A model generated the notes under the pieces. It searched no databases and had not been told where the DNA came from. It saw only the letters and a list, made by a program, of their open reading frames with translations. The position numbers and the translations under genes were made by a program. This document shows, piece by piece, positions 10 to 54,561 of a stretch of 54,741 nucleotides of DNA; position 1 is the first letter of the stretch, and every line of letters starts with the position of its first letter. The stretch lies in contig CAYTYC010000007.1 in NCBI GenBank assembly GCA_964442255.1, positions 1 through 54,741 of the forward strand, in the 5' to 3' direction. The stretch is from an uncultured archaeon. GTDB lineage: Archaea > Iainarchaeota > Iainarchaeia > Iainarchaeales > 1-14-0-10-31-34.

Positions 10-68
10 TTTTGATCAAACTTTTTGGAAAAAAGTTTGTTTTGATAAAACTTTTGGAAAAAGTTTTA
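10..68. repeat. Two tandem ~30-nt imperfect palindromic units (TTTTGATxAAACTTTT(T)GGAAAAA(A)GTTT)
   Basis: 10-39 and 40-68 are near-identical; each contains an AAACTTTT/AAAAGTTT inverted repeat. Confidence 0.75.
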
Positions 69-46042: not shown

Positions 46043-46157
46043 CCAAGTGGAACGCGGGAAAAAAGCATTAAAAAAAGTTTTCTACGTGGATAAGCGAACC
46101 CCTTTGGGAATCGACGAAGAAAACTTTTTATTAAATAGGTGTTGAGGTATTACATAT

Positions 46158-46597
46158 ATAGCCAGGCTGTCGGTTGACCAGAAGCTGAAGAAAGGCGACT
46201 TCATTGTCGTAATCAGGGTTTTCAGGGTTCCGGGATCCAGGAAAATGCCGGAAAGAATCAGGTACAGTTTAGCGCTCATACACAAAGAGAAAAGAGTTCC
46301 GGGATACGACCACAGCCTGCTGGAAAGCCATCACAGGCACTTTCAGGGAAAGAAAACCAAGGTAAAGCCTGTTAATCAACGACTTCTTCAACAACAAGCA
46401 GTCCTACTTCATCTTTCAGGGAAAGAAAACCAAGGTAAAGCCTGTTAATCAACGACTTCTTCAACAACAAGCAGTCCTACTTCATCTTTCAGGGAAAGAA
46501 AACCAAGGTAAAGCCTGTTAAGCTGAGCGAACTGCTAAAGCGGTTCAGGAAAGAATGCGATAAAATCATGAAAAAATCACGGAGTGAAACAAGATGA
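46158..46597 (+). pseudogene. DUF6516/TumE-like toxin gene disrupted by two 73-nt repeat+insert units
   Basis: RVP..PERIRYSL..GYD..HHRHF motif; deleting 146 nt restores a frame ending in an ATGA overlap with the next gene; apparent start is ATA. Confidence 0.75.
46340..46521. repeat. Repeat-insert-repeat-insert-repeat array (36-nt repeat x3, identical 37-nt insert x2)
   Basis: Repeats 46340-46375, 46413-46448 and 46486-46521; inserts 46376-46412 and 46449-46485. Confidence 0.95.
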
Positions 46598-46974
46598 TTA
46601 AGGCGAAAGAAATCGAGATTAAAATTCAGTCCCGGGGGGATTTTTTCAAAGAAGCAGAAGCGAGAATTAAGAATATAGAGAAAGGAAAATTTCCAAAGAA
46701 GGGCGTTCGCTCTGTTTCATTCCATAATCTGGAAGAAGTGAAGAAAACGCTTACCTTAAAAAGGCTTGAGCTTTTGCATGCAGTGAGAAGAAAAAAACCG
46801 GCATCAATCTACGCTTTAGCCAAGCTCCTTGGAAGGGAAACAGAAAACGTGAACAGGGACGTTCACCTTTTGGAGGGCCTTGGTTTTCTTGAATTAAAAA
46901 AATCCAAAGAAAAACGGAAAAAGCTTGTTCCGCAAACAGAATTTAATGAAATCAAGATAGCGATTCCGATTTAA
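46594..46974 (+). CDS. HTH transcriptional regulator/antitoxin (HVO_A0114-like)
   Basis: LTLKRLELLHAV..PASIYALAKLLGR..NVNRDVHLLE..G; typical partner of DUF6516 genes. Confidence 0.85.
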   Translation: MIKAKEIEIKIQSRGDFFKEAEARIKNIEKGKFPKKGVRSVSFHNLEEVKKTLTLKRLELLHAVRRKKPASIYALAKLLGRETENVNRDVHLLEGLGFLELKKSKEKRKKLVPQTEFNEIKIAIPI

Positions 46975-54450: not shown

Positions 54451-54561
54451 CTCCTTCACCTGCTTTTCAGTTTCATCAGCCGGAACATGTCTTTTGCGTT
54501 TGTCGAATTAGATGAATACGACCTCCTTCACCTGCTTTTCAGTTTCATCAGCCGGAACATG
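54451..54561. repeat. 39-nt perfect direct repeat around a 33-nt insert
   Basis: 54451-54489 = 54523-54561; insert 54490-54522. Confidence 0.95.

Follow-up and report, generated by a model that had tools for sequence, protein, structure and literature searches.

Spacer-sized inserts between duplicated target copies interrupt a TumE-family toxin gene and recur at about 20 sites in an Iainarchaeota genome

In the 1.28-Mb assembly of an Iainarchaeota (DPANN) archaeon (51 contigs, 93.8% complete), we identified a TumE-family toxin gene interrupted by a 37-nt insert (S) that lies between copies of 36 nt of the gene's own sequence (R), and we found the same type of scar, each with its own R and its own S, at 20 sites across the genome. 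The toxin locus is contained in the window, as we term the whole 54,741-nt stretch of DNA analysed (contig C7). The insertion, the duplication of its target, its support in sequencing reads, its recurrence and a sequence motif common to the sites are directly observed; the mechanism that best accommodates them is off-target spacer integration of the Cas1-Cas2 type followed by duplication of the inserted unit, an explanation that we judge to have an even chance of being right.

At the window locus the arrangement reads R-S-R-S-R (46340-46521; Table 1), with all copies of R and all copies of S identical. Tandem Repeats Finder reported a period of 73 over this interval with 2.5 copies and 100% matches (score 364), and pattern searches of the window allowing up to 3 mismatches returned three matches for the 36-nt R (starts 46340, 46413 and 46486) and two for the 37-nt S (starts 46376 and 46449), with matches in 0 of 100 shuffles for either search. 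These analyses bore out the period-73 structure of three repeats and two inserts given in the original prediction. No further copy of S was found in the genome (1,277,402 bases, 51 contigs) besides those at this locus. R translates as FQGKKTKVKPV in the frame of the upstream open reading frame (ORF; 46245-46448, 67 aa), which agrees with the earlier reading of the repeat as the toxin's own coding sequence, and the stop of this ORF falls within the second unit. A frame ending in TGA (46595-46597), which overlaps an ATG at 46594, is reached only after removal of 146 nt, just as had been proposed for restoration of the gene to its ATGA junction. In one frame, S reads NDFFNNKQSYF, all codons of which end in C or G.

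Table 1 Features of the interrupted toxin locus and further scars (positions are those of the window unless a contig is named)
Feature	Position	Strand	Basis or remark
TumE-family toxin gene, N-terminal part, to end of R copy 1	46146..46375	+	homologue search, alignment
R copy 1, 36 nt, duplicated target, FQGKKTKVKPV	46340..46375	+	
S copy 1, 37-nt insert	46376..46412	+	source not found
R copy 2; holds the TAA stop of the broken ORF (46446-46448)	46413..46448	+	
S copy 2, identical to S copy 1	46449..46485	+	
R copy 3, runs on into native downstream coding sequence	46486..46521	+	
TumE gene C-terminal part, FQGKKTKVKPVKLSELLKRFRKECDKIMKKSRSETR plus stop, out of frame with N-terminal part	46487..46597	+	
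Partner gene, 126-aa HTH protein, PF25212 (HVO_A0114)	46594..46974	+	Pfam E=4.3e-21
Second window scar, R(39)-S(33)-R(39), period 72	54451..54561	.	repeat search, X1 depths
Scar with 38/34 unit	C12:6400		

The family of the interrupted gene was assigned through its homologues. Alone, the window fragments fall below the Pfam threshold, with no TumE match at E<=1, and another homologous-protein search with the window ORF returned only the ORF itself; a HMMER (phmmer) search with the 76-aa N-terminal part gave 34 proteins at E<=0.001, mostly of ~100 aa, and all seven of those tested against Pfam match PF20126 (TumE). Both parts of the window gene fit intact homologues from end to end and are gap-free at R (alignment A1; for example, ...LTELVEKFRKECFELM in a homologue stands opposite ...LSELLKRFRKECDKIM in the window). 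Because of this gap-free alignment, the ancestral TumE gene can be taken to have had one R and no S. The empty site expected of off-target integration is therefore represented by the TumE homologues, and it is represented again by copies of a dispersed element that lack S+R (described below).

The locus resembles TumE systems with an HTH partner in the ~100-aa TumE proteins related to the broken gene and in the partner gene, which overlaps the stop by ATGA; it differs in that the window copy, known here from its sequence, is frameshifted by 146 nt and carries ATA in place of the start Met. The partner protein is presumed from its PF25212 assignment to be an antitoxin or regulator. The ATA codon (46158-46160) stands opposite the start Met of the homologues, and the first ATG (46245) is found 29 codons further on, so that the start of the TumE gene may be lost or unusual, and the gene may already have been impaired. 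With its 146 extra bases the gene is out of frame, its toxin product is truncated, and its link to the overlapping start of the partner gene is broken. Inactivation of the toxin by the insertion, as originally proposed, can accordingly be upheld in that the gene is frameshifted and truncated, but prior activity is doubtful given the ATA opposite the start Met.

To describe the insertion in sequencing reads we used Logan k=31 contigs. The region is present in two runs of one microbial-mat study, X1 (0.99 of sampled words) and X2 (0.54, depth ~4 over the region), and X3 holds next to nothing of it. Among the X2 contigs listed, neither a junction nor the unit stands out clearly. X1 may be the source sample, and it therefore confirms the reads rather than supplying a second population. 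In X1 the contigs break precisely at the R ends: one of 1812 nt extends 30 nt into R (depth 9.2), one is R by itself (36 nt, depth 25.2), one of 97 nt consists of S flanked on either side by 30 nt of R (depth 14.9), and one of 7989 nt begins with the last 30 nt of R (depth 8.9). At 46340, X1 contigs thus contain both the R-S and the S-R junction above flank depth. The depth ratios suggest some 1.6-1.8 units per genome, which may reflect either a mixture of alleles with one and two units or noise around a value of two. This intermediate depth fits doubling of the unit by slippage or unequal exchange. The proposed check for zero, one or two units was consequently answered in part, since R is longer than 30 nt (k-1) and contigs at k=31 are blind to an empty allele. 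At the second window site (54451) the flanks stand at a depth of 8.9, R at 17.8 and S at 9.4, and the insertion appears to be fixed, with one unit in every genome. As a separate observation, this scar (54451-54561) takes the place of the last residues, at the C terminus, of an ORF on the minus strand that extends beyond the end of the window.

These depths bear on whether the scars might be an artefact of assembly, scaffolding or library preparation. The assembly does contain 100-N gaps flanked by duplicated 55-mers, and the number of units in a 73-nt tandem is not fixable by short k-mers. Against this, the independently built X1 contigs hold the R-S and S-R junctions at no less than flank depth at both window sites, the R copies have diverged at five of the 20 sites, and the sites share a sequence motif; an artefact is, in our estimation, very unlikely.

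To assess how widely the same build occurs, the whole genome was scanned for direct repeats with exact runs of at least 18 nt. Periods of 72, 73 and 74 returned 9, 10 and 12 runs, respectively, compared to 0-4 at nearly all other periods between 40 and 120 (the 8 runs at period 78 are a protein tandem repeat). Curation yielded 20 scars, of which 15 have R copies that are identical and 5 have R copies that differ at 1-2 positions; over the 20, R is 34-42, S is 32-39 and the period is 71-76 (mean 73.2, sd 1.1). Because of the mismatches at the five sites, the scar events are considered to be inherited and of different ages. A doubled unit is present at four of the 20 sites, namely C7:46340 (the window locus), C11, C24:9020 and C30:9338. 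The suggestion that the toxin locus might be a snapshot of de novo array formation did not survive this survey, in which it is one of about 20 scattered scars. Beyond the window, the eighteen further scars (loci L023-L041; period 71-76) are distributed over contigs C1, C3, C4, C11, C12, C13, C15, C16, C17, C21, C22, C24, C27, C30 and C36.

Several candidates were set aside during curation. C22:137/144 is a period-36 protein repeat, C17:27770 is a hairpin array at a contig end, C23:22602, C23:22638, C6:45316-45374, C17:14945, C16:25792 and C11:7635 are short-period or low-complexity repeats, and C1:82040, C13:2440, C14:24347 and C21:15121 are 55-mer duplicates at N gaps. C17:16805 was rejected as a 72-nt tandem duplication beside a tRNA-like piece.

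The scars fall within real genes, which they have broken or lengthened. Removal of S+R lengthens the stop-free frame at 15 of 19 sites (C11 excluded), and at the remaining four the insert keeps the frame open. In-frame scars add 25 aa next to the catalytic motif of a cysteinyl-tRNA synthetase (C27:6124) and 24 aa to a GT4 glycosyltransferase (C16:22715), the scar at C30:9338 shifts the frame of a HEPN gene, and a gene for a CARDB surface protein also carries a scar. As 36-nt repeats flank the insert, each scar should be reversible by slippage, and such units could conceivably switch genes off and on.

The scar at C13:15213 sits in a dispersed element of ~130 nt, for which a search gave 15 matches. 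Two of these are the duplicated C13 pair (C13:15217/15290); in the other 13 places, R passes directly into the downstream sequence without S+R. Because of these 13 copies, C13:15213 constitutes a second, independent proof of an empty site. The element itself (copies include C1:49252, C2:12098, C8:13048 and C30:8990) has a conserved 34-nt core, followed by an A run and a GC hairpin.

The most elaborate scar, C11:3653-3902 (L026), is located at the stop/start junction that precedes a T2SSF (FlaJ/TadC-like) gene and consists of four repeats and three spacers in the order Sa, Sa, Sb. Of the four repeats, the one beside the native T2SSF start has only 28 nt in common with the rest, whereas 35 nt are common to the remaining three, the 7 additional nt being non-native. 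In the simplest history, a 28-nt duplication with a 46-nt insert would have come first, and a later event, starting from the same outer boundary and spanning 35 nt, would have copied 7 nt of the earlier insert. The far-end cuts are both at GAA↓GG-type sequence (arrow, cut).

To describe the target sites, each end of R was read outward across its boundary (40 ends; 1920 tests). At 8 of 40 ends, GGC directly adjoins R on the outside (expected 0.65, P=2.5e-7); GCC stands one base further out at 7 of 40 (P=3.6e-6) and CTG starts 7 nt inside R at 7 of 40 (P=3.1e-6), while the border bases of R are G or C in 27 of 40 (P=5e-3). Of the 20 sites, 13 have the flank motif at one end, 3 have it at both ends and 4 lack it. 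The window R ends in CTGAAAG on the minus strand; the TGAAAG ending to which the original prediction had drawn attention is indeed there, recurring at 2 of 14 other perfect sites (background 0.005, P=2e-3), and TGAAA lies within the last 9 nt of R at 4 of these 14 (P=1e-3). When inserts were oriented by the flank motif, their first base was T in 9 of 13 (P=1.8e-3) and their second T in 8 of 13; the definition of the boundary can bias the first base only against G. Motif, spacing and orientation therefore point to a sequence preference that spans one junction, with the other cut placed at a measured distance and the insert oriented.

Each insert is a discrete fragment, and most bear no relation to the other inserts: among 21 compared inserts there was neither a common sequence nor terminal repeats. 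A transposon or miniature element (MITE) with target-site duplication was rejected on this basis, the inserts sharing no family sequence or ends and forming no hairpins (a search for hairpins gave no general signal). For 3 of 15 inserts, the full length is an exact copy of a distant locus of this genome (C3:8668-8702, C27:4708-4742 and C3:62838-62872). Each of these sources begins within a T-rich stretch, and their contexts and those of the targets display no similarity and no microhomology. The other 12 of 15 have no counterpart in the assembly, and most inserts probably derive from DNA outside this genome for that reason.

These origins are informative with respect to microhomology-mediated template switching, in which a polymerase would copy ~35 nt elsewhere and return ~37 nt upstream. 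Such a process would give R-S-R with a templated S, and three inserts are templated in the genome while two resemble nearby sequence. However, it would be expected to produce a wide range of sizes, compared to a period with an sd of only 1.1, and it is further disfavoured by the positional target motif, by the missing microhomology or context similarity at the three known sources, and by the 12 of 15 inserts that have no template in the genome. We regard template switching as improbable.

For the window insert, the exact 37-mer and a codon-degenerate pattern were not found in metagenome contigs, nor was the degenerate pattern found in genome contigs; viral contigs held no source either, and blastn against phages and plasmids gave only chance-level matches (E>=0.04). 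Three other inserts (C4:1709, C13:2189 and window 54490) likewise had 0 matches in viral contigs, and the source sample may be absent from the searched collections. The proposed database check thus yielded neither a source nor, for window S, a PAM or protospacer, so that, of the description of the insert as a foreign coding fragment, the readable NDFFNNKQSYF frame stands and a foreign source was found in none of the collections searched. An origin in adjacent or paralogous sequence, which would have spoken against the original prediction, found no support: window S has no similarity to its surroundings (z=0.0) and is unique in the genome. As a general explanation, copying of inserts from the flanks was rejected, as it applies only to C24 and C30 and weakly to 54451. 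The C24:9020 insert resembles the edge of its own target (20/24 nt), and the C30:9338 insert resembles a stretch 29 nt downstream of its target (18/24 nt). Window S shares 15/17 nt with the reverse complement of the C24 insert, in a segment that is not common in the genome. In addition, the inserts of C7:46340, C24:9020 and C1:17573 have a similar segment of 17-22 nt (15/17 and 19/22 nt), otherwise rare in the genome, and may come from related source sequences.

To our knowledge, no reaction other than Cas1-Cas2 spacer integration surrounds an oriented, site-specific insert of spacer length with a duplication of repeat length. A spacer-length, unique insert between two copies of its target is what we observed at the window locus (S 37, R 36) and across the 20 sites. 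Under this mechanism, a DNA fragment of ~37 nt would have been pasted into the TumE gene by an integrase-type reaction, in which the enzyme cuts the two target strands at positions ~36-37 bp from each other and attaches the fragment at either end; repair of the gaps would then duplicate the 36 nt between the cuts and give R-S-R. Insertion of spacers by Cas1-Cas2 works likewise, and would here have taken place at a non-CRISPR site. Later, slippage or unequal exchange between the identical R copies would have doubled the 73-nt unit to R-S-R-S-R, and the number of units is probably still variable in the population. The same reaction would have struck about 20 sites in the genome.

Consistent with such a reaction, one report describes Pyrococcus furiosus Cas1-Cas2 alone performing full-site integration at non-CRISPR sites one repeat length apart and with G/C borders, guided mainly by the leader-repeat junction (PMC6698737), and a second report states that Cas1 contacts bases on either side of that junction (PMC13748974). 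A motif at one junction together with an oriented insert is expected of a Cas1-type integrase (PMC6698737, PMC13748974), which argues against a CRISPR-independent process. Seeding of spontaneous CRISPR loci by off-target integration has been credited to Nivala et al. 2018, as cited in PMC6698737 and bioRxiv 10.1101/148544.

The presence of Cas1-Cas2 is the one directly testable feature of off-target integration, and it was not found in the assembly: Cas1 (PF01867), Cas2 (PF09827) and Cas6 (PF01881) had no match in this 93.8%-complete genome, which leaves absence from the cell unproven. This is a finding that the original prediction had itself named as counting against it. A Cas4-like nuclease match is weak and solitary (24.5 bits). 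Comparison of R with true CRISPR repeats of the organism had also been proposed, and no canonical CRISPR array was found in the genome; Rfam CRISPR families did not match R, and Rfam searches of 18 flanking loci returned tRNAs only. The original account of ectopic spacer integration and unit duplication is thus supported by the geometry, the insertion and the target duplication, and opposed by an assembly in which Cas1, Cas2, Cas6 and arrays were not detected. The enzyme, if such an enzyme acted, would have to be encoded on unbinned contigs, to have been lost recently, or to come from a mobile element or host.

Searches of relatives extended this picture. Among 40 relatives, the search detected Cas1 in 7 (with this genome, which has none, 41 were covered) and, within the family, in 1 of 8 (G002). 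The G002 contig with Cas1 (C5, L010) has a GC of 0.50 and CCCTAA repeats beside the gene, and a second G002 contig (C6, L047) with a CRISPR array (37-nt repeat, period 73-81) has a GC of 0.51, compared to 0.36-0.39 in the large contigs of G002. Both contigs are probably mis-binned, and because of this difference in GC the family may lack CRISPR altogether. No R-S-R units were seen in 219 kb of the relative G001 (GC 0.27), nor in 80 kb of the large G002 contigs, a length too short to be informative.

A working mini-CRISPR array that guides interference would explain the repeat-spacer-repeat shape and the minus-strand CTGAAAG end at the window locus. Its two spacers are identical, however, its repeat is unique to the locus and unmatched in the Rfam CRISPR families, cas genes were not found in the assembly, and the locus lies inside coding sequence; we therefore rejected its membership in the class of CRISPR arrays and consider such an array the least probable of the explanations, by our reckoning hardly credible.

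A stronger competitor to off-target integration is a CRISPR-independent process that adds ~73 nt, comprising a short copy of other DNA with target duplication as the remainder. It would involve an enzyme or a replication/repair route that recognises a CTG...AAG↓RGCC-type junction, and integration of small chimeric circles or concatemers through R homology is a possible route. Neither cas genes nor an array is detected in the genome, and probably none exist in the family, as such a process would have it. The sum of R and S (sd 1.1) varies less than R or S, and the outliers compensate: 28+46 and 35+39 at C11 and 42+32 at C30, whereas a fixed ruler of the Cas1-Cas2 kind predicts no compensation. 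Two identical units at 4 of 20 sites are a high share for spacer integration and would be given by the circle or concatemer route. The site motif extends in part beyond R, into a region that in a CRISPR array is occupied on one side by variable spacers. Furthermore, the resemblance of the C24:9020 and C30:9338 inserts to sequence beside their own targets, and of window S to the C24 insert, speaks against Cas1-Cas2.

In turn, several observations weigh against the CRISPR-independent process, for which no candidate enzyme is known. The three inserts of known source have a constant length of 35 nt (up to 36-37 at two, where 1-2 boundary bases are ambiguous), and at these sites R varies over 34-38 with the insert constant, the opposite of compensation; chance identity at the boundary can account for values of R above 37. 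The inserts do not form hairpins, and the 219 kb of G001 contain no R-S-R unit. As proof of a non-CRISPR process, the fixed R+S sum is therefore mixed evidence. We see a CRISPR-independent process as a real possibility, though one that falls short of an even chance. We further suggest, tentatively and with somewhat less confidence still, that an integrase activity that does not stem from a resident CRISPR-Cas locus acts genome-wide at a short junction motif, be it a new enzyme or Cas1-Cas2 from a mobile element or from the host cell of this DPANN archaeon.

Off-target Cas1-Cas2-type integration also has the closest parallels among known systems. The neo-CRISPR loci of Nivala, Shipman and Church (2018), as described in PMC6698737 and bioRxiv 10.1101/148544, share with the scars a spacer-sized insert, a repeat-sized duplication of ordinary genomic DNA, sites that are reusable and grow to small arrays, and self DNA among the inserts. 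That work concerned E. coli with induced Cas1-Cas2 and, according to the preprint that cites it, offered only circumstantial evidence in two other species, whereas here ~20 natural scars, with a junction motif in common, occupy a genome without detectable cas genes or array. With P. furiosus Cas1-Cas2 in vitro (PMC6698737), the scars have in common a cut spacing of repeat length, G/C borders, specificity at one junction and no need of a leader; the spacing is 30 bp there and 36-37 here, and a test-tube reaction of a known enzyme stands against genomic scars read from sequence. Simple tandem duplication by replication slippage resembles the step from one unit to two identical units but differs in the first step, R-S-R, which is not a duplication of native sequence because S is absent from the homologues and from the rest of the genome.

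In these sources, off-target spacer integration is known mainly from induced E. coli and test-tube work, natural cases being circumstantial. Here, ~20 events are visible in the 1.28-Mb genome of a natural population, and the two window sites are at or above about flank depth in X1. The set combines mixed ages, a shared target motif and exact self copies, and one site has grown to three spacers; the genes broken or lengthened include those for TumE, the HEPN protein, the glycosyltransferase and the cysteinyl-tRNA synthetase. If Cas1-Cas2 made the scars, they would show a cost of CRISPR adaptation and how arrays can start, and the ~20 natural off-target sites would reveal rules of the integrase. 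If no Cas1 was involved, they would represent a new mode of DNA insertion. Should a non-resident integrase be responsible, the scars would reflect a new mutational or insertional process, or a natural source of proto-CRISPR units in a cas-less lineage.

Two further repeat types were noted in the assembly. At C17:16805-16961, an exact 72-nt tandem duplication (2.18 copies) lies by a piece resembling the 3' half of a tRNA; it has the period of the scars and a different build. A repeat of the type TTTTGATnAAACTTTTTGGAAAAAAGTTT, which is A/T-rich and has inverted-repeat character, occurs at window positions 10-66 and at many contig ends (C19, C23, C24, C27, C34 and C35), where it seems to break the assembly.
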